Assembly (NCBI GenBank): GCA_035529055.1
Contig: DATKXL010000077.1
Location: 1 to 53,768 of the forward strand
Origin: Bacteroidales bacterium
GTDB taxonomy: Bacteria > Bacteroidota > Bacteroidia > Bacteroidales > VadinHA17
DNA length: 53,768 nt
Direction: 5' to 3'
Made by a program: the position numbers and the translations under genes. Below, one piece after another: positions 4,701 through 52,604 of the stretch (position 1 is the stretch's first letter; each line of letters begins with the position of its first letter). The notes under the pieces were generated by a model. It ran no database searches, had not been told where the DNA came from, and saw only the letters and a list, made by a program, of their open reading frames with translations.

Positions 4701-5501
4701 GTGAAAGAACAACCAATCGGAATATTTGATTCAGGTGTAGGAGGACTAACTGTTGCACATGCAATTAAACAGATCCTGCCTGGCGAAAGTCTTGTCTATT
4801 TTGGCGACACAGCCCATTTGCCTTATGGGGATAAATCCGAGGAATCAATCAGGTTCTATTCACGGAAAATCACGGAGTTCCTGCTTGAACAAAATGCAAA
4901 GGTTATCCTTGTAGCCTGTAATTCAGCCTCAGCTTCTGCTTTCGATTTTTTAAAAGAGCAATTTCGTGGCAGAACTATCCTTATTGATGTGATTGATCCT
5001 GTCGTAGATTATTTAAGCACTAAAAGTTTTAATAAGATAGGGGTTATAGGAACCAAAAGAACAGTAAGTTCAGGGACATATGATCATAAGCTCATGGAAA
5101 AATCTCCGGGTACTTCAGTGGTTTCACTGGCTACTCCGTTGCTTGTTCCAATGATCGAGGAGGGATTTATTTTTGATGATATAAGTAATGCAATTATACG
5201 AACATATCTCTCAAACGAATCATTTTCCGGGATCCAGGCTTTAATACTTGCTTGCACTCACTACCCGATCATAAAAAACCAGATCAGCAAATTTTTTAAT
5301 TTTAATGTCGAAGTAATCGACTCGGCCAGGATTGTATCCCATATACTCAGGGATCTGCTCGAAAAGAATCAGCTTTTAAATGATTCCGGAGTTATCACCG
5401 ACCAGTTTTTCATCTCTGATTACACACCTTATTTCGAAAAGATTGCCAGAATGTTTTTTGAAGGTGATATAAACCTCAGGAAAGCCGATATCTGGAGTTA
5501 A
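4701..5501 (+). CDS. murI: Glutamate racemase
   Basis: IGIFDSGVGGLTV, ILVACNSASA and LACTHYP motifs. I prefer the in-frame GTG at 4701 because the track ATG at 4656 lies inside the upstream terminator hairpin. Confidence 0.88.
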   Translation: MKEQPIGIFDSGVGGLTVAHAIKQILPGESLVYFGDTAHLPYGDKSEESIRFYSRKITEFLLEQNAKVILVACNSASASAFDFLKEQFRGRTILIDVIDPVVDYLSTKSFNKIGVIGTKRTVSSGTYDHKLMEKSPGTSVVSLATPLLVPMIEEGFIFDDISNAIIRTYLSNESFSGIQALILACTHYPIIKNQISKFFNFNVEVIDSARIVSHILRDLLEKNQLLNDSGVITDQFFISDYTPYFEKIARMFFEGDINLRKADIWS

Positions 5502-5618
5502 AGTTTTTTGCCTGATACCCTCGTAAAAGTATGATTAATATCATTCAGAAAAACAGATGTATATCAGATTTGTAATTCTTAATTTTCATAATTTTGTAAA
5601 CCCTAAGCAATAAAAAAA

Positions 5619-5713
5619 CTTTGGGTGCCTTAGTGATATCCTTTGTGTACCTTAGTGGTTTAATCTTTTATAACCACACGAGGCACACCAAGTTCACACT
5701 AAGGAACGCCAAG
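5619..5713. repeat. Composite inverted array of four ~17-19-nt units (CTTNGNGTNCCTTAGTG-like) in the korA leader
   Basis: Direct copies at 5619-5635 (ctttgggtgccttagtg) and 5641-5657 (ctttgtgtaccttagtg). Inverted copies at 5674-5692 (ccacacgaggcacaccaag) and 5695-5713 (cacactaaggaacgccaag). Confidence 0.6.
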
Positions 5714-5789
5714 AAAATCAAAACATTAGTTTTCAGAATTTGATATATCCTGGTTATTTAAGGTAGTTGCTTGTAATACAATTAGTATA

Positions 5790-7634
5790 ATGGATAAAAG
5801 ATCAAAGGTTATTGAAAAAGAAGAAGTAGTGATCAGATTTTCGGGCGATTCAGGAGACGGGATGCAATTAACAGGCACTCTGTTTTCTGATACTGCTGCA
5901 TTGTACGGTAACGATTTATCTACTTTTCCTGATTATCCCGCCGAGATTCGTGCTCCTCAGGGTTCAGTGGGAGGTGTATCAGGGTTTCAGATCCACATGG
6001 GCCATTCCGAAATACATACTCCGGGAGATTATGCCGATGTCCTTGTTGCAATGAATCCTGCTGCGATCAAAGCTAATGCAAAGTGGACAAAGAAAGGTGG
6101 CACCATTATTTATGACAAAGATAATTTCACTGATAAAAACATTGAAAAAGCAGGCTATGAAAAAGATCCTGTAACGGAAGAGAAGCTTGACAGTTTCAAT
6201 GTGATAGCAGTTCCTATCACATCGATGGTAAAACAAGCTCTTAAGGATTTCGGGCTTGATCCGAAATCGGTTCTGAGAACAAAGAATATGTTTGCTCTTG
6301 GAATGGTTTACTGGCTTTTCGACCGTAAGCTAAATTATACGGAACGGTATTTTGAAAAGAAATTTCAAAAAAGACCTGAGATAGCCGAAGCTAACAAAAT
6401 TGCTCTGCGTGCCGGATATTATTATGCCGAAACAATTGAAGCGTTGAATCCGGTTATCAGGATAAGTCCCGCACCAATAGCCAAAGGAACATACAGAAAC
6501 ATATGCGGTAATGCTGCCACTGCCTGGGGACTGTTGGCAGCTGCGGAAAGAGCAGGATTAAAACTATTCATAGGTTCTTACCCTATTACCCCTGCAACAG
6601 GTATTCTTGAAGAGCTTTCAGCCCGAAAAGATCTGGGGGTCAAAAGCTTTCAGGCCGAAGATGAGATTGCCGGGATATGCACGGCTTTGGGAGCCTCCTT
6701 TGCCGGAGACCTGGCTGTTACATCAACTTCCGGTCCTGGATTGGCACTTAAATCTGAAGCTATTGGTCTCGCCGTAATGGCTGAGCTCCCGATAGTAATC
6801 ATAAATGTACAGCGTGGCGGCCCCTCAACAGGACTGCCTACCAAAACGGAACAGGCCGATCTGATGCAGGCTCTTTATGGCCGTAACGGGGAGTGCCCGG
6901 TTGTTGTAATTGCTGCCAGCACCCCCTCTGATTGCTTCCATTTTGCATATGAAGCAGCAAAAATAGCACTCGAACACATGACCCCTGTGATATTGCTGAC
7001 TGACAGTTATTTAGCAAATGGTTCCGAACCATGGAAAATACCTGAGATGAAGTCGCTTCCTGAAATTCATCCTCCCTTTGCTGACAAAAGCGAAACTCCG
7101 TTTTTACCTTATAAACGGGATAAGGAGAAACTCACAAGATTTTGGGCAAAGCCGGGAACAGCGGGTCTGGAACACAGGATCGGTGGACTTGAAAAAACTG
7201 TTAAAGGGACCGTATCCTACATCCCTGAGAATCATGAAATGATGGTGAAATTCCGCGCTGAAAAAGTTGAAAGGATAAGTGAAAGAATACCTGAACTTAC
7301 ACTTTTTGGTGAGAGCCAGGGTGACTTGCTTGTTACAGGCTGGGGTGGGTCACATGGTTATTTGATTACAGCAGTTAGTGAATTGCAGGCGGAGGGTCAC
7401 AGGGTAAGCCTGGTGAACTTTAATTACATCAATCCCTTGCCAAAGAATGTAAGAGATATTTTCACCAATTTTAAGAAAATAGTGGTTTGTGAACTTAACA
7501 TGGGACAATTTGCTGATTATCTGCGGATGAATTACCAGGAGTTCACTTATGAACAGATTAATAAGGTTCAGGGACTGCCGTTTACTGTTTATGAAATAAA
7601 AGAAAAATGCATCACAATACTGAAGGGAGACTGA
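5790..7634 (+). CDS. korA: 2-oxoglutarate/2-oxoacid:ferredoxin oxidoreductase, alpha subunit (fused gamma+alpha type)
   Basis: 614 aa. N-terminal IRFSGDSGDGMQLTG, central GSYPITPAT and QRGGPSTGLPTKTEQADL motifs of the OFOR alpha subunit. Followed 1 nt later by the TPP-binding beta subunit. Confidence 0.88.
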   Translation: MDKRSKVIEKEEVVIRFSGDSGDGMQLTGTLFSDTAALYGNDLSTFPDYPAEIRAPQGSVGGVSGFQIHMGHSEIHTPGDYADVLVAMNPAAIKANAKWTKKGGTIIYDKDNFTDKNIEKAGYEKDPVTEEKLDSFNVIAVPITSMVKQALKDFGLDPKSVLRTKNMFALGMVYWLFDRKLNYTERYFEKKFQKRPEIAEANKIALRAGYYYAETIEALNPVIRISPAPIAKGTYRNICGNAATAWGLLAAAERAGLKLFIGSYPITPATGILEELSARKDLGVKSFQAEDEIAGICTALGASFAGDLAVTSTSGPGLALKSEAIGLAVMAELPIVIINVQRGGPSTGLPTKTEQADLMQALYGRNGECPVVVIAASTPSDCFHFAYEAAKIALEHMTPVILLTDSYLANGSEPWKIPEMKSLPEIHPPFADKSETPFLPYKRDKEKLTRFWAKPGTAGLEHRIGGLEKTVKGTVSYIPENHEMMVKFRAEKVERISERIPELTLFGESQGDLLVTGWGGSHGYLITAVSELQAEGHRVSLVNFNYINPLPKNVRDIFTNFKKIVVCELNMGQFADYLRMNYQEFTYEQINKVQGLPFTVYEIKEKCITILKGD

Positions 7635-47393: not shown

Positions 47394-47858
47394 TTGAAAC
47401 AACTAAATCTGCCAACATATTCATTCAGGATAACCGGGAAAGAGGGAAATGAAATGATCCTTGATCCCTTAAGGAAGAAATATGTCAGACTCACCGAGGA
47501 GGAATGGGTTCGGCAGAATTTCGTCAAGTACATGATCCATGAAGGGAACTATCCTCCGGGTCTGATGGGGATTGAAGTTATGTTTGAATTTAACCGGCTT
47601 AAACGGCGGGTGGATATCCTTGTTCACGACAGGTCAGGAAATCCTGTAATGATTGTTGAATGCAAGGGGTTTAATGTTAAGCTGAGTGATAAGGTTTTTG
47701 AGCAGATTGCTGATTATAATCTGAAATACATGGTGCCATATCTGGTTGTTACAAATGGCGATCTTCACTATGCCTGCAAAATGGATTTTGAAAACAAAAA
47801 ACCTGAATATCTCCTCACAATCCCGCTTTATGAAGATCTTTTAACCTCCCTTACCTGA
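47394..47858 (+). CDS. HsdR-N-terminal-like (PD-(D/E)xK nuclease fold) domain protein
   Basis: 154 aa. The pattern RVDILVHDRSGNPVMIVECK fits a D...(D/E)xK core. TTG start as given in the track. Confidence 0.6.
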   Translation: MKQLNLPTYSFRITGKEGNEMILDPLRKKYVRLTEEEWVRQNFVKYMIHEGNYPPGLMGIEVMFEFNRLKRRVDILVHDRSGNPVMIVECKGFNVKLSDKVFEQIADYNLKYMVPYLVVTNGDLHYACKMDFENKKPEYLLTIPLYEDLLTSLT

Positions 47859-48853
47859 TGATCAGCGTTATATGTGCAATTATAAGAAATGATGACAACA
47901 AGGTACTGGTTGTGCAGAGAGGTGAGAGAACGGATCATCCCTTTAAATGGGAATTTCCCGGTGGTAAGCTTGTTCCCGGAGAAAGCGGGGAAGATTGCAT
48001 TGTCCGCGAAATAACAGAAGAGTTAGCCATAAATATTGTTATTTGCGGCAAACTGAATCCTGTTATCCATGATTATGGACATAAACAGATTGAACTTATT
48101 CCTTTTATCTGCGATACGCTCGATGAATTGCCGGTATTATCGGAGCATATAGACTTCAGATGGTCGTCACCTGAAGATCTTGATAAGGTCGATTTTTGTG
48201 AAGCTGATGTATTTGTTGCAAAAGAATATATTGATACTGTTAATAAATTAACAGCAGAAAAGGAAGAAATTATTGAAAACGAACACGATCTGGCGCAGGA
48301 TATAGAGCTTCAGAATATGATCAACAGTATGATGAGCACAAAGGAGGTTGAATGGGTGGCAACATCGGCTATAGAAAATTCCGTTATTTTTCATAAGCTC
48401 CTCGAATATTCTTACAGCAGTGACCCAAAGCTTGCTTTCAGATCATCATGGACGCTGTCGAAGGTATGTGACAGATTTCCTGAACTGATATACCCCCATC
48501 TGACAAGAATTATTGAAGGATTAAAAGGCATAAACAATGAAAGCGCTCAACGGTCGTTCCTGAGAATACTCTCGTTAACCGACTTTAAGCAGATAAACCC
48601 GAAGCTTCATGGCATCCTGGCTGATCATTGTTTCCAGGCCCTCAATTCAGGATTCTCAGCTATTGCGATAAAGGCTTATTCTATGGAAATTCTTTACAGG
48701 CTGGCTGTGATTTATCCCGAACTGGCAAATGAGCTCTCTGCGTCGGTAAATATGCTCCAGGGAGAAGGGTCGGCAGGGATCAAAGCAAGAGGACGGATCA
48801 TACTTAAAAAGCTCGCAGAGATCACTTCAGATCCGGAATCCAGTCAGCTATAA
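47858..48853 (+). CDS. MutT-type NUDIX hydrolase fused to a C-terminal HEAT/ARM-like helical repeat domain
   Basis: Nudix box GGKLVPGESGEDCIVREITEELAI in the first ~130 aa. The C-terminal ~190 aa are all-helical repeats resembling AlkC/AlkD-type HEAT-like repeats. The start overlaps the upstream stop (TGATG). Confidence 0.75.
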   Translation: MISVICAIIRNDDNKVLVVQRGERTDHPFKWEFPGGKLVPGESGEDCIVREITEELAINIVICGKLNPVIHDYGHKQIELIPFICDTLDELPVLSEHIDFRWSSPEDLDKVDFCEADVFVAKEYIDTVNKLTAEKEEIIENEHDLAQDIELQNMINSMMSTKEVEWVATSAIENSVIFHKLLEYSYSSDPKLAFRSSWTLSKVCDRFPELIYPHLTRIIEGLKGINNESAQRSFLRILSLTDFKQINPKLHGILADHCFQALNSGFSAIAIKAYSMEILYRLAVIYPELANELSASVNMLQGEGSAGIKARGRIILKKLAEITSDPESSQL

Positions 48854-49038: not shown

Positions 49039-49653
49039 ATGAGAATTATAGATACAAAAGGTCAGCAATGCCCTCTGCCATTGATAGCTACTAAGAAAGC
49101 ATTAAAAGAGGCTGATATCGGAGAGGCTTTTATTGTTCTGACTGACAATCATACCTCATTGAATAATCTGACCCGGTTTCTGAAAGATAATAAGGCAGAT
49201 TTTTCGGTTGAAACGGAAGGAAGTGTCTGGAAGCTTAAAATTGTTAAGAATACCGGTGAGAATGCTCAAATAAAAGCAGAAGACTATTGCAGTTCATCAG
49301 TACCGGATTTTCCGAAGGGTGATTTTATCATTGCTTTATCATCCGACAAAATGGGTGATGGGGATGACGAACTCGGTCATCTGCTTATGAGAAACTTTAT
49401 TAATGCTCTAAAGGACCTCGATCGGTTACCTGATAAAATTGTCCTTTATAATAAGGGAGTCACTCTTGTATCATCAGATTCTCCGCTGGTAAGACATTTT
49501 AATGATCTGGAGAAAATGGGGGTAAAGTTACTGGTTTGCGGCACATGTATTCAATTTTACTCCCTTGAGGGAAAAACAGGGGCCGGATCAGTGAGCAACA
49601 TGTTTGAAATAACAGAGGCTATGGCTTCTTCAGGAAATATTATCAGGCCATAA
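49039..49653 (+). CDS. yedF: Selenium-metabolism protein YedF (TusA/SirA-like N-domain plus DsrE-like C-domain)
   Basis: IDTKGQQCPLPLI (CPxP of the TusA fold) and a C-terminal DsrE-like half with LLVCGTC; about 204 aa; 2 nt upstream of selD. Confidence 0.8.
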   Translation: MRIIDTKGQQCPLPLIATKKALKEADIGEAFIVLTDNHTSLNNLTRFLKDNKADFSVETEGSVWKLKIVKNTGENAQIKAEDYCSSSVPDFPKGDFIIALSSDKMGDGDDELGHLLMRNFINALKDLDRLPDKIVLYNKGVTLVSSDSPLVRHFNDLEKMGVKLLVCGTCIQFYSLEGKTGAGSVSNMFEITEAMASSGNIIRP

Positions 49654-49673
49654 TTTTGTTAAAAAACCGGAAA

Positions 49674-50714
49674 ATGAAAATTGATCTTCTTCAGATGGTT
49701 GAAACCGGCGGTTGTTCTGCCAAGATATCACCAAAGCAGCTTGAGGAGATTCTTAAATATTTGCCTCTTCCGGAAGATCCTAATATTCTTGTCGATATAG
49801 ACACTCATGATGATGCGGGTGTTTACCGTGTAAATGATGATCTGGCTCTTGTCCTGACTACAGATTTTTTCCCGCCGGTATGCAGCGATCCATATGAATT
49901 CGGACAGATTGCTGCAGCCAATTCATTAAGTGACGTTTATGCAATGGGAGGCACACCGATTGTTGCCCTTAATATCATGATGTTCCCGGCTGCTAAGCTT
50001 CCAATGGAGGCTTACATAGAAATACTTAAAGGAGGGGCTGATATGGCTTCTCTGGCCGGAACAAGGATTATCGGCGGACATACCATTGATGACTTTCCTC
50101 CGAAATACGGACTGGCGGTTGTGGGTTATGTCCATCCTGATAAAATTATTACAAATGCAGGTGCCAGACCCGGGGACTCATTGATACTTACAAAACCTGT
50201 CGGAACCGGAGTAATTCTTGCAGGGCAGAAGTTAGGAATAGTTTCAGATGGTGATGTAACAGAAGCTAAAAGACAGATGAAACTCCTTAACAGATCAGGA
50301 GCGGATGTGATGAAGAAGTATGATGTCAAAGGTGCAACCGATATCACAGGCTTTGGTCTTGCAGGTCACGCCTTAAAGATGGCAAGAGCCAGTAATGTCA
50401 CGTTCAAAATAAACATGAAAAAGGTTCCTCTGATTGGTAATACTTATGGTCTGGTCGATGAGGGTTGTATTCCGGGCGCAGCATTCAGTAACCTTGATTT
50501 TGCCGAAAATGATACAATTTTTGCTCCGGATCTCGACTATAACCTGAAGATGATCGCATTTGATGCACAGACCTCAGGGGGCCTTCTCATATGTGCACCT
50601 TCAGAAGTCACTGATAATGTGATTTCTGATTTGCACTTAGCAGGTCTGACTTATTCAGCGGTGATCGGAGCAGTGAGTGAATTTCAAAATAGATTTTTCA
50701 ATCTTGAGAATTGA
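49674..50714 (+). CDS. selD: Selenide, water dikinase (selenophosphate synthetase), Cys form
   Basis: GGCSAKISPKQLEEIL (catalytic Cys and Lys loop; E. coli GCGCKISP), DDAGVY, AIR-synthase-like fold. ATG at 49674 preferred to TTG at 49656. Confidence 0.9.
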   Translation: MKIDLLQMVETGGCSAKISPKQLEEILKYLPLPEDPNILVDIDTHDDAGVYRVNDDLALVLTTDFFPPVCSDPYEFGQIAAANSLSDVYAMGGTPIVALNIMMFPAAKLPMEAYIEILKGGADMASLAGTRIIGGHTIDDFPPKYGLAVVGYVHPDKIITNAGARPGDSLILTKPVGTGVILAGQKLGIVSDGDVTEAKRQMKLLNRSGADVMKKYDVKGATDITGFGLAGHALKMARASNVTFKINMKKVPLIGNTYGLVDEGCIPGAAFSNLDFAENDTIFAPDLDYNLKMIAFDAQTSGGLLICAPSEVTDNVISDLHLAGLTYSAVIGAVSEFQNRFFNLEN

Positions 50715-50829
50715 TTTTCAAGCGCCATTAAATTCTTATTAAAATTTTCCGATAGTCAAATAATATTAGTTTGTAAACATAATTAATAACTTGGGACTTT
50801 AATTAAATGCCAACATCAGGATCATAGAT

Positions 50830-51951
50830 ATGGGAACAGTAATAAGCAGTAATATACAGGGATTGACAAGCCTGATAGGCAACACCCCTCTATTTGAGAT
50901 TAAGTTTTTATTTAAGGGTAAGACGGGGAAAATTTATGCGAAAGCTGAGCATCTAAATATGACCGGCAGCATAAAAGACAGAATGGCCCTGCATATAATG
51001 CGTGAAGCTTACAGGAAGAATTTTATAAAACCGGGCGACAGAGTAATTGAGGCTACCAGTGGCAATACAGGTATTGCCTTTTCAGCTGTCGGCAGAGCTT
51101 TGGGTCATCCGGTAACTATTTTTATGCCCGACTGGATGAGCGATGAACGTAAAAACCTTATCAGAAGTTATGGAGCTGATATCGTTCTGATCAGTAAGGA
51201 AGAGGGTGGATTTTTAGGTAGCATAAGACGAACTCAGGAGATGGCTGCTGCTGATAAGAATTCTTTTCTTCCCAGACAATTCGAGAATGAGGATAATATG
51301 ATGGCTCATTATACTACAACCGGACCGGAGATCTGGTGGCAGTTAAGGTTCCATAATATGATACCCGATGCATTTGTAGCTGGAGTCGGTACAGGAGGTA
51401 CTATCATGGGAACAGGGAGATATCTCAGGGAACAAAATCCGGTTATAAAACTTTATCCCCTCGAACCATCAAATTCGCCCACCATGTCAACCGGTTACAA
51501 GGTAGGCACACACCGTATTCAGGGCATCTCTGATGAGTTCATACCCCCGATAGTCAACCTTGATGAACTTGATGAGGTAATTGCTGTTGATGACGGCGAC
51601 TCAATAATAATGGCTCAGAAACTGGCATCCGAACTTGGTATTGCAGTGGGAATCTCTTCGGGAGCAAATTTTCTGGGTGCTGTATTAAAACTTGAAGAAT
51701 TTGGGCCTGATGCTGTAATAATTACTCTATTCGCTGATGATAATAAAAAGTACCTCAGTACCGGATTAATGAAAAATGAACCTGTGAAGAAGGATTTTTT
51801 ATCAACGGACATTAAACTTAAATCCTTCAGAGCACTTAAACGAAGTTGTCTGATGTGCTGCAATCCTGCAGAATGCAAAGCTATTGCCAACCCGGAAGTT
51901 ATCCGCGAAATCAATTTCCCCGCCTGCTACTTAAGGAGTATGAAAATCTGA
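50830..51951 (+). CDS. PLP-dependent cysteine synthase family protein (CysK/CysM-like) with a ~65-aa Cys-rich C-terminal extension
   Basis: [12 protein letters not shown] (PLP lysine), [23 protein letters not shown]. The core ends near residue 305, followed by ...[31 protein letters not shown]. Confidence 0.85.
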
Positions 51952-51986: not shown

Positions 51987-52604
51987 TTAATCAAAAATTG
52001 TTTCGAACACTTTATGTTTTTTTGCTTTGAAGCACATTTCTATCTGATCCTTTGTTGTACGATCAGTTGAAAGAGGTGGCAGTGAATCGGTTGAGAAGAA
52101 TCCTGCAGCAAGGGTCTCTGTATTTTCCATGAAATTGTTTTGTAGCAGCTCACATTCCACAAAGATCTTGTAAATAGTGAAAAGGAACATTTCATTATTA
52201 TGCTTATTCGCCAGGTGGACTGCAATTATTCTTTTTGGCCGGACATGTGCTCCCGCTTCTTCCAGACATTCCCTTACAGCTGACTCACTGACAGATGTGT
52301 TTACATCAGCCCATCCTCCCGGTAATGACCAGGCTCCATCAACTTTCTCTTTTACCAGCAGTATTTTATCATCTTTGAAAACCGCGGAACGGATATCAAC
52401 CTTGGGTGTCTGATAACCTGTTTCCGAAGCAAAGAGATCTTTTAGCTTTTCGTGACTGATATCTGTATATTCCTGCAATATTTCAATGGAGAGGTTTCTT
52501 ATATCCTGATACCTGTCAATATCATACTGGTTTTCTCCGAATGTCAGGCCAGCCTGCGCTATTGACTGGAGTCTGGCTGCCCATTCAAGCCACTTGTGTT
52601 TCAT
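51987..52604 (-). CDS. NUDIX hydrolase with the N-terminal helical NUDIX-associated domain (ADP-ribose pyrophosphatase-like)
   Basis: N-terminal WLEWAARLQSIAQAGLTFGENQYDIDRY and Nudix box GGWADVNTSVSESAVRECLEEAG. Confidence 0.8.
   Translation of the reverse strand: MKHKWLEWAARLQSIAQAGLTFGENQYDIDRYQDIRNLSIEILQEYTDISHEKLKDLFASETGYQTPKVDIRSAVFKDDKILLVKEKVDGAWSLPGGWADVNTSVSESAVRECLEEAGAHVRPKRIIAVHLANKHNNEMFLFTIYKIFVECELLQNNFMENTETLAAGFFSTDSLPPLSTDRTTKDQIEMCFKAKKHKVFETIFD

Follow-up and report, generated by a model that had tools for sequence, protein, structure and literature searches.

The analyzed stretch of DNA, in the following called the window (53,768 nucleotides, contig DATKXL010000077.1 of a Bacteroidales bacterium), carries three consecutive genes on one strand: yedF, a Cys-type selD and the gene for a 373-residue PLP enzyme which ends in a tail with five cysteines. 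Judged by sequence and fold, the third gene encodes a PLP beta-replacement enzyme of the Fn1055 type and not a standard CysK. The term cysKt is used here for the gene of this tailed Fn1055-type enzyme. Our tentative reading, an almost even call, is that in one lineage a selD operon has taken up a variant of a sulfur enzyme, which may supply selenide there. Since bacteria without selenium genes also commonly have the tailed enzyme, it would be at most a recruited helper.

The yedF gene (positions 49039 to 49653, plus strand) encodes 204 amino acids with a TusA-like N-terminal and a DsrE-like C-terminal half (Pfam TusA at residues 3-70, DsrE at residues 120-202). The protein reached 190.1 bits with the NCBIfam model TIGR03527 (cut-off 110), and the CPxP and CGxC motifs of YedF were read in the translation as CPLP in the first and CGTC in the second half. 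For selD (49656 to 50714, plus strand, 352 amino acids counted from TTG), encoding a selenophosphate synthetase, 359.8 bits were obtained with TIGR00476 (cut-off 125), and the loop GGCSAKISP marks the protein as Cys type. All 10 aligned SelD relatives begin at the site that corresponds to the ATG at 49674 (MKIDLL), which is probably the true start instead of the TTG at 49656, leaving a gap of about 20 nucleotides to yedF. An A+T-rich spacer of 115 nucleotides (50715 to 50829) follows, in which no terminator-like site was found on the plus strand, and then cysKt (50830 to 51951, plus strand). The downstream flank is a convergent Nudix hydrolase gene (51987 to 52604, minus strand) with Nudix_N and NUDIX domains. 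The first-pass annotation had described the three genes in a row on one strand, a Cys-type SelD and 115 nucleotides from the selD stop to the ATG of the PLP enzyme gene, and all of this was confirmed by open reading frames and profile scores. It had also placed yedF 2 nucleotides before selD; the adjacency stands, while the distance rests on the TTG.

In the protein encoded by cysKt a PALP domain was found at residues 13-302 (50866 to 51735; Pfam, 244.3 bits). This catalytic core includes K49 (GSIKDR), T76 and S77 (TSGNTG), Q150, a GTGGT motif and D235 (GISDEF), and the five single residues named were invariant in an alignment of 47 homologues. Using the NCBIfam models TIGR01136, TIGR01139 and TIGR01138 for the comparison with CysK and CysM, the enzyme stayed below all three curated cut-offs, with 314.1 versus 344.15 bits for cysKM, 302.3 versus 350.95 for cysK and 252.5 versus 394.2 for cysM. 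The best solved relative was Fn1055 (PDB 5B53; E 3.1e-124 over residues 10-336), with the next chain at 2.5e-68. Foldseek yielded 58-59% identity to Fn1055, and the VIA comparison a Z of 41.6 over residues 5-339 versus at most 33.9 for CysK chains, so that the enzyme is closer to Fn1055 than to CysK both in sequence and in fold. With numbering mapped from the 5B53 alignment, T76, S77, Q150 and D235 correspond to Thr73, Ser74, Gln147 and Asp232, which a review names as catalytic residues of Fn1055. Common to the window enzyme and Fn1055 (CysK2; PDB 5B53/5B55/5Z5C) are the fold, the PLP lysine, the TSGNTG loop, the Gln, the Asp of GISDEF and a C-terminal extension. O-acetylserine sulfhydrylases of the CysK/CysM type are likewise fold-type II PLP enzymes, with 33-42% identity to the window enzyme for solved CysK chains, but these chains align only to about its residue 315-318. 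Fn1055 of Fusobacterium nucleatum is a cysteine (hydroxyl) lyase, forming serine and H2S from cysteine and water (PMC9865163, PMC9600241), and the tailed enzyme may have the same activity. In the available text of these two papers, adjacency of Fn1055 to selenium genes is not reported.

The extension common to both enzymes comprises residues 303-339 (51736 to 51846, starting DDNKKYLST, with a strand at 328-336). The HMMER alignment to 5B53 ends at residue 336, and the chain of Fn1055, 340 residues long, has no tail; its alignment stops about where the five-Cys tail of the window enzyme begins. This tail comprises residues 340-373 (51847 to 51948) with the pattern C340-x2-C343-C344-x4-C349-x16-C366. 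All five cysteines were invariant in two alignments, one of the 47 close homologues and one of 46 tails from several phyla, and the tail is not a chance run of cysteines. Measured against these data, the earlier description of a CysK/CysM-family enzyme holds for the PALP fold and fails for the CysK identity. The five-Cys tail it had pointed out is real, while the end of the core, which it had put near residue 305, lies further downstream, as the part common to Fn1055 runs to about residue 336-339.

The five-Cys pattern was observed in 99 of 155 full-length sequences, and tailed relatives stem from records of Bacteroidota, Gemmatimonadota, Desulfobacterota, Thermoleophilia, Acidobacteriota and Ignavibacteria. 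Within the Fn1055 family, the tail is the mark of a large and uncharacterised branch spanning several phyla. Its block-mean pLDDT was 60-72. Searched as 49 and as 75 residues, it matched no Pfam family at E<=10; none of the 1000 chains of solved structures examined aligned past residue 339, so that none covers the tail, and the best ESM Atlas feature match (0.84, to unnamed clusters) was below a meaningful level. Searching 1.84 billion representatives with a profile of the 46 tails, a total of 76 matches at E<=0.001 were found, all of them 44-339 amino acids long. These looked like fragments, frameshifted copies and one-off chimeras of the C-terminus of the same enzyme, and a second populated protein context for the tail was not found among them. 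The tail might bind a metal (Zn or Fe-S) or work as a thiol relay on which released sulfur or selenium is held; we slightly favour a metal or redox site without specificity for selenium. If it were known whether the tail carries a metal cluster or a persulfide, the control of H2S production or of cysteine synthesis in many anaerobes could be understood.

Searching the whole genome of the window's organism (95.4% complete), selA, selB and tRNA-Sec were not found (selA match of at most 33.6 bits), while selU was present on a separate contig. This agrees with the earlier observation that selA, selB and selU are missing from the window, and indicates that selD already has an ordinary role. selU was also found in all five genomes carrying the trio. 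Bacteroidetes are described as having the SeU trait and no selenoproteins, and selenocysteine lyase as the top partner of YedF (Lin et al., 2015, PMC5322559). The yedF-selD pairs of the SeU trait in Bacteroidota (PMC5322559; Zhang et al., 2008, PMC2432076) resemble the window in a YedF (TIGR03527) directly upstream of SelD, in selU elsewhere in the genome and in selA, selB and tRNA-Sec not being found; the window differs by the PLP enzyme gene added after selD. Lin et al. (2015) use the terms “cysteine synthase”, “CysK” and “PLP” nowhere in their main text (0 occurrences), and no account of a CysK-like gene together with selD was found in the literature searched, although minor neighbours of selD may be listed in the supplements of Lin et al. 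and of the Kayrouz preprint. Judged by titles and abstract openings, none of the papers found on “cysteine hydroxyl lyase” deals with selenium. With regard to sulfur, no cysE over the cut-off was found in the genome (best TIGR01172 match 25.3 bits versus 210.65), which argues against an O-acetylserine route. Of the two CysK-family matches there, only cysKt is full-length; the other is a fragment on another contig. The genome also encodes class-V aminotransferases, which could already serve as selenocysteine lyases.

Comparing the surroundings of tailed enzyme genes, selD or yedF was observed nearby at none of 80 loci from genomes and at 2 of 80 from metagenomes. All nine selD-linked loci fell, together with two loci cut at the contig end, into one clade of 11 rows (UFboot 100, SH-aLRT 99), and outside it selD and yedF were found at none of the 114 readable loci. 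Within the clade selD was directly adjacent at eight of nine readable loci and 1.76 kb away at the remaining one. The spacer between selD and cysKt was 5-18 nucleotides at six loci (L083, L086, L163, L170, L172, L173) versus 115 in the window. Both flanks varied, with Nudix or phosphate-uptake genes as neighbours, while yedF, selD and cysKt stayed together, although SelD identity between these loci has fallen to 64-79%. Further genes of selenometabolite pathways did not recur around the trio. selD was detected in 52 of 60 genomes of the window's genus, but the cysKt of the subclade in only 5 of 39; one congener has the same flanks and yedF-selD without cysKt, in the order yedF-selD-Nudix-hyp, the Nudix gene following directly on selD. 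The adjacency thus has a single evolutionary origin and counts as about one observation, which could also reflect inherited gene order; recurrence in independent lineages was not seen. The earlier expectation that the adjacency is conserved in relatives therefore holds for one subclade, at every readable locus, and not outside that lineage.

Nor was the tailed family confined to genomes with selD. In a sample of 400 genomes of the order, selD was detected in 17 of the 30 genomes with the tail and in 152 of the 370 without it, leaving 13 and 218, respectively, in which no selD was found (Fisher p 0.12). Of the 13 tail-bearing genomes 10 are at least 93% complete. The first-pass annotation had inferred a possible dedicated selenium-handling module and named results that would speak against it. 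For the whole tailed family two of these were obtained, a tail common without selD and an adjacency absent elsewhere, and neither the module nor the co-occurrence of the family with selD is supported. The best explanation of the tailed form is a protein of general cysteine and sulfide metabolism in many phyla and not a selenium-specific one. A conserved neighbour family of the wider tailed family was not found in more than 12 of 160 loci; the most frequent neighbours were a class-V aminotransferase (12 loci), a rhodanese-domain protein (9) and a TrxR-like protein (8).

From this distribution it is quite possible that cysKt is a bystander with ordinary housekeeping functions in cysteine, serine and sulfide metabolism, standing after selD only through one ancestral insertion that was inherited. 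Examples would be cysteine synthesis from serine and sulfide, in a genome in which a serine acetyltransferase was not found, or the breakdown of cysteine to H2S. The single origin of the adjacency, the family unlinked to selD elsewhere, the tail-bearing genomes in which no selD was found, the sulfur genes among the neighbours of the wider family, and cysKt as the sole full-length member of the CysK family detected in a genome with no cysE over the cut-off all agree with this. The 115-nucleotide spacer in the window points the same way, as it allows separate transcription, and it speaks, like the single origin, the 13 of 30 tail-bearing genomes without detected selD and the class-V aminotransferases of the genome, against recruitment. 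A mere inherited order is, however, harder to reconcile with a trio that stays intact while both flanks change, with the operon-like spacers of 5-18 nucleotides at six loci and with a pairing kept over the divergence of SelD. Should inherited gene order be all there is to the adjacency, an annotation note would remain: these proteins should be called Fn1055-like and not cysteine synthase A.

More far-reaching roles in selenium metabolism fared worse. An enzyme dedicated to selenium, with the five-Cys tail as selenium-specific perselenide relay, is very unlikely. It would fit the conserved position after yedF-selD in one subclade, the subclade's own tail ending (FPxC[YF]LR or xPxCFLK, seen in 97 of the 102 full-length proteins in one homologue set) and a subclade-specific Glu152, two residues from the substrate-binding Gln150. 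However, only four core positions set the subclade apart, the same five invariant cysteines occur in many relatives with no selD nearby or with none found in the genome, and most congeners without cysKt do have selD. Still less credit, close to none, is given to a consumer of the SelD product, in which the PLP aminoacrylate would accept selenophosphate to form free selenocysteine or another seleno-amino acid, a small-molecule counterpart of SelA or SepSecS. Those enzymes also use PLP, pass through aminoacrylate and take their selenium from the SelD product (Kayrouz preprint), but they are not homologous at family level and act on tRNA-bound substrates. For Fn1055, the title of PDB 5B55 documents such an aminoacrylate intermediate, and the place downstream of selD would suit a consumer, as selA, TIGR04348 (senB) and selU are among the genes most often overlapping selD (Kayrouz preprint). 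Against it stand the Nudix or phosphate-uptake genes around the trio in place of recurring selenometabolite genes, and a family without a link to selD outside this lineage.

In the recruitment reading, which we prefer, a single event in one lineage of Bacteroidales, the genus of the window, would have brought cysKt to its place right behind the widespread yedF-selD pair, and the trio would since have been kept as a tight three-gene unit. The pair would serve tRNA 2-selenouridine synthesis through SelU, and cysKt would contribute to the supply of chalcogenide. If it handled selenocysteine in the way Fn1055 handles cysteine, the enzyme could release selenide, the substrate of SelD, and thereby take the place held in other bacteria by NifS-type selenocysteine lyases beside yedF/selD. 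Substrate, direction of the reaction and coupling to SelD are presumed here, and we know of no activity on any selenium compound for the family of the tailed enzyme. NifS-type chemistry yields alanine and an enzyme-bound persulfide or perselenide, whereas the window enzyme is expected to give serine and free selenide by water replacement. NifS-type selenocysteine lyases and cysteine desulfurases, although of the class-V aminotransferase fold, may be functional analogues: they too are PLP enzymes found next to yedF/selD, and they could liberate the selenium of selenocysteine. A complex prediction for SelD and the tailed enzyme scored 0.00 in two runs without controls, which says nothing about binding either way. 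For the source of the selenide that SelD uses in the cell, a question not yet settled in the study of bacterial selenium metabolism, NifS-type lyases and unspecific thiol chemistry are the accepted candidates; a cysteine-lyase-type enzyme kept in an operon with yedF and selD would give a concrete and inexpensive way to probe another route. A fold-type II PLP “selenocysteine hydro-lyase” that forms serine and selenide from selenocysteine and water, catches the selenide on the five-Cys tail and passes it to YedF/SelD is rather unlikely; if true, bacteria whose sole selenium trait is selenouridine could thereby recover selenium from free selenocysteine. Bolder still would be a variant using selenophosphate to make a free seleno-amino acid.

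Two single cases were considered separately. The adjacency on a 6.2 kb contig of an apparent second family (G377) suggested horizontal transfer of the selD-cysKt cassette. The contig has a GC of 0.40 versus 0.46-0.48 in two other contigs of that genome, and its tetranucleotides correlate at 0.93-0.95 with the window's lineage (flanks alone 0.89-0.91) versus 0.64-0.77 with its own genome (flanks 0.58-0.73). It is probably mis-binned, and the transfer was rejected on this ground; its SelD shares 69-74% identity with the SelDs of the clade versus 58-59% with those of its congeners. In another genome (G145) a relative of the enzyme has TGA at the first tail cysteine, with the frame open for 44 more codons and the second tail cysteine also lost. 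selA was not found in this genome, while a congener (G263) has cysteine at that position and has selA. A nonsense truncation is more likely here than selenocysteine in the tail.

On the + strand, yedF (49039-49653), selD (49656-50714) and a gene for a PLP enzyme of 373 residues (50830-51951) were found as consecutive open reading frames, and as an observation this arrangement is real and tidy. YedF scored 190.1 bits with TIGR03527 (cut-off 110) and contains a TusA-like (residues 3-70) and a DsrE-like part (120-202). SelD is of the Cys type, with GGCSAK in its translation, and scored 359.8 bits with TIGR00476 (cut-off 125). The PLP enzyme has a PALP domain at residues 13-302 and five Cys in its final 34 residues (Cys340, 343, 344, 349 and 366). 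The first-pass annotation had described the three genes correctly, including the order of yedF and selD; the selD start behind its 2-nt spacing for this pair is probably not the real one. Under a mechanical ORF rule selD opens at TTG (49656), but 10 of 10 aligned SelD relatives begin at the Met of MKIDLL, and this alignment points to the ATG at 49674 as the probable true start. The spacer between selD and the PLP enzyme gene is 115 nt long and A+T-rich, and no terminator-like site was found in it on the + strand. Upstream, at 47858-48853, lies a gene for a MutT-like NUDIX protein of 331 aa, whose NUDIX domain covers only residues 5-117, with about 200 C-terminal residues free of Pfam matches; it is kept upstream of yedF at the related loci L083, L086 and L173.

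Using the NCBIfam cut-offs, the PLP enzyme fell below those of cysKM (314.1 versus 344.15), cysK (302.3 versus 350.95) and cysM (252.5 versus 394.2). Its nearest solved relative was, by a wide margin, PDB 5B53 (E 3.1e-124 over residues 10-336, next distinct chain 2.5e-68; Foldseek, 58-59% identity and TM 0.87-0.88; VIA, Z 41.6 over residues 5-339). CysK chains reached a Z of at most 33.9 with VIA and aligned only to about residue 315-318. 5B53 is Fn1055 (CysK2) of Fusobacterium nucleatum, a PLP enzyme described as forming L-serine and H2S from L-cysteine and water (PMC9865163, PMC9600241). The key residues named by a review, Thr73, Ser74, Gln147 and Asp232, correspond to T76, S77, Q150 and D235 in the sequence alignment to 5B53, and these four and the PLP lysine K49 were invariant among 47 homologues. 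The catalytic core had been taken to end near residue 305; the segment shared with the solved relative extends to 336-339, and Fn1055 ends at the point where the five-Cys tail begins. The AlphaFold2 model (mean pLDDT 79, pTM 0.81) was confident for the core and gave short helices for the tail (block-mean pLDDT 60-72). A second CysK/CysM-like frame in the same genome (contig C167, 2548-3207, - strand) is 36% identical to the window's enzyme over residues 127-346. It lies close to the end of this 3.3-kb contig and lacks its N-terminal half, which is missing beyond an in-frame stop; it may be a fragment or broken gene.

Of 120 candidates in a search with residues 300-373, 116 proteins had E<=0.001, almost all of them annotated as 'cysteine synthase' and 375-386 aa long. 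The five tail Cys were invariant in 47 of these proteins, and likewise in a diverse set of 46 tails that spans several phyla. Among 155 full-length relatives from the retrieved loci, 99 had all five Cys, 19 CxxCCx4C only, 35 CxxC only and 2 none. For the tail, no Pfam match at E<=10, no meaningful Atlas neighbour and no solved chain covering it were found. Its profile gave only 76 matches among 1.84 billion representatives, all short, which looked like fragments or one-off chimeras of the same enzyme's C-terminus. With invariant Cys and no match elsewhere, the tail is, as far as sequence comparison goes, a conserved, family-specific and uncharacterised module, and the enzyme bearing it is a widespread and new form of an enzyme type already known. 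The tail may bind Zn or Fe-S, or may serve as a redox or persulfide relay. In genome G145 (locus L186, contig C968, ~4.6-4.8 kb) the codon of the first conserved tail Cys is an in-frame TGA (KRV*YTYCDP...LPHCTRR). Another 44 open codons follow it, the second tail Cys is also replaced, and selA was not found in this genome. The congener G263 (L185, contig C21) encodes Cys here and carries selA as well as a selD that contains a TGA. The TGA in G145 is probably a nonsense truncation, selenocysteine being the alternative.

The idea of a dedicated selenium module survived only in a narrow, single-origin sense for one subclade; the tailed family at large is not linked to selD. In the best 80 genome loci (relatives made up 526 of the 600 candidate stretches, and up to 6 kb was retained on either side) no SelD or YedF match was found near the tailed enzyme. 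Both were found near it in 2 of the best 80 metagenome loci; in 38 of these 80 the upstream sequence was 2 kb or longer. When 400 genomes of the window's order were sampled evenly, 30 had a tail match and 169 had selD. A co-occurrence of the tail with selD was not borne out, with selD found in 17 of 30 tail-bearing versus 152 of 370 other genomes (odds ratio 1.9, Fisher p 0.12, relatives not being independent). Of the 13 tail-bearing genomes without selD found, 10 were at least 93% complete, and at least 14 genomes with both genes present and placed had them on different contigs. Among 160 loci the commonest neighbour family occurred at 12 at most. Recurrent neighbours were a class-V aminotransferase just upstream (12), serine-dehydratase-alpha-like (10), rhodanese-domain (9), methionine sulfoxide reductase (9) and thioredoxin-reductase-like proteins (8), and are sulfur-related. 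These counts and neighbours identify the tailed enzyme as a protein of sulfur metabolism rather than a marker of selenium use. At loci L003-L162, the gene sits, in some lineages, just downstream of the aminotransferase or of a thioredoxin-reductase-like gene, or near a rhodanese-domain gene. Many selD matches in the order sample fall within reading frames about 730-790 residues long, suggestive of fusion proteins. One in-frame TGA occurs in a few matches, which may be Sec-type SelD, so that both SelD forms seem to exist in the order.

Using at least 76% identity to the window's enzyme as criterion, the subclade formed one clade of 11 in the catalytic-core tree (ultrafast bootstrap 100, SH-aLRT 99), on which a single change suffices for selD adjacency. 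Conservation of this adjacency held inside the subclade: selD is directly upstream in the window and at L083, L086, L163, L170, L171, L172 and L173, with a spacer of 5-18 nt in six loci. At L174 (G467, contig C2), the only case with the two genes separated, selD lies 1.76 kb upstream behind an inserted M20-family peptidase gene (5110-6570) split in two reading frames (278 and 191 aa). Contig ends truncate L084, L085 and L169, which are uninformative here. Outside the subclade the adjacency did not extend, selD being absent from all 114 readable loci. Four core positions distinguish the subclade, including Glu152 next to Gln150; its tail ending, FPxC[YF]LR or xPxCFLK, was found in 97 of 102 full-length proteins of the tail search.

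All genome members of the subclade belong to the window's genus, apart from G377, nominally of another family. Its trio-bearing contig C127 (L163, 6186 bases) has a GC of 0.40 versus 0.46-0.48 in two other G377 contigs. Tetranucleotide correlations were 0.93-0.95 with the window's lineage (flanks alone 0.89-0.91) and 0.64-0.77 with those contigs (flanks 0.58-0.73). C127 is probably mis-binned, and so gives no evidence for transfer of the trio between families. Over the part that can be read, contig C40 of G418 matches the window exactly and is not an independent case. The adjacency thus counts as a single evolutionary event.

The own genome (95.4% complete, 298 contigs) contains selU on contig C113 (341.5 bits versus a cut-off of 219.75), which the first-pass annotation had not seen in the window; the absence of selA and selB it had noted there extended to the genome, with no match over cut-off (best 33.6 bits for selA, and 195.8 versus 242.25 for selB). 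No tRNA-Sec was among the 34 tRNAs reported by ARAGORN, and YedE was not found. All 5 other trio-carrying genomes have selU. This is the ordinary pattern of Bacteroidota, namely the selenouridine trait without selenoproteins, and a link of YedF to SelD, as described by Lin et al. (2015, PMC5322559).

Most plausibly, although we hold this reading tentatively and at slightly less than an even chance, a Fn1055-type enzyme from general sulfur metabolism came to lie behind yedF-selD in a single capture and was retained in an operon with them, where it would act on selenocysteine as Fn1055 acts on cysteine and provide selenide for SelD. The role would be that of the NifS-type Sec lyases beside yedF in other bacteria, thought to feed SelD selenide (Lin et al., 2015). 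No cysE was found over cut-off in the own genome (best 25.3 versus 210.65 bits), which argues against the classical O-acetylserine route. The trio was kept intact while its flanks differ by locus (Nudix genes like those of the window, an insertion encoding a BNR protein, or the phosphate-uptake genes PiT, porin O/P and PstS/C) and the associated SelDs diverged to 64-79% identity. A purely inherited gene order, with the enzyme in a housekeeping cysteine, serine or sulfide role, has an appreciable if smaller chance. Of 60 genomes sampled from the window's genus, 52 were found to have selD, but the subclade's enzyme gene was found in just 5 of 39. In the congener G125 the order is yedF-selD-Nudix-hyp and the flanks are the same, with a gap of 80 nt where the enzyme gene would lie; yedF-selD alone also occurs in two genomes of another genus. 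The enzyme gene is an optional add-on to the core yedF-selD pair.

The original proposal of a selenium-dedicated enzyme with a perselenide-relay tail appears improbable; the sulfur-type neighbours in the wider family are a hint that the tail is involved in the chemistry of thiols or persulfides. We regard as very improbable an enzyme that would use up selenophosphate in making a free seleno-amino acid. Among the papers searched, none joins selD, yedF and 'cysteine synthase'. The terms 'cysteine synthase', 'CysK' and 'PLP' are absent from the main text of the 2015 paper by Lin et al., and 'cysteine synthase' from that of the Kayrouz et al. preprint, where the genes listed as overlapping selD most often are selA, TIGR04348, selU, yedF and duf3343. 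At L163, L170, L172, L173 and L085, a PHO4/PiT transporter, phosphate-selective porin O/P and PstS/PstC-like proteins recur downstream of the trio. Phosphate carriers admit selenite in other organisms; here these genes may reflect plain gene order in the lineage.
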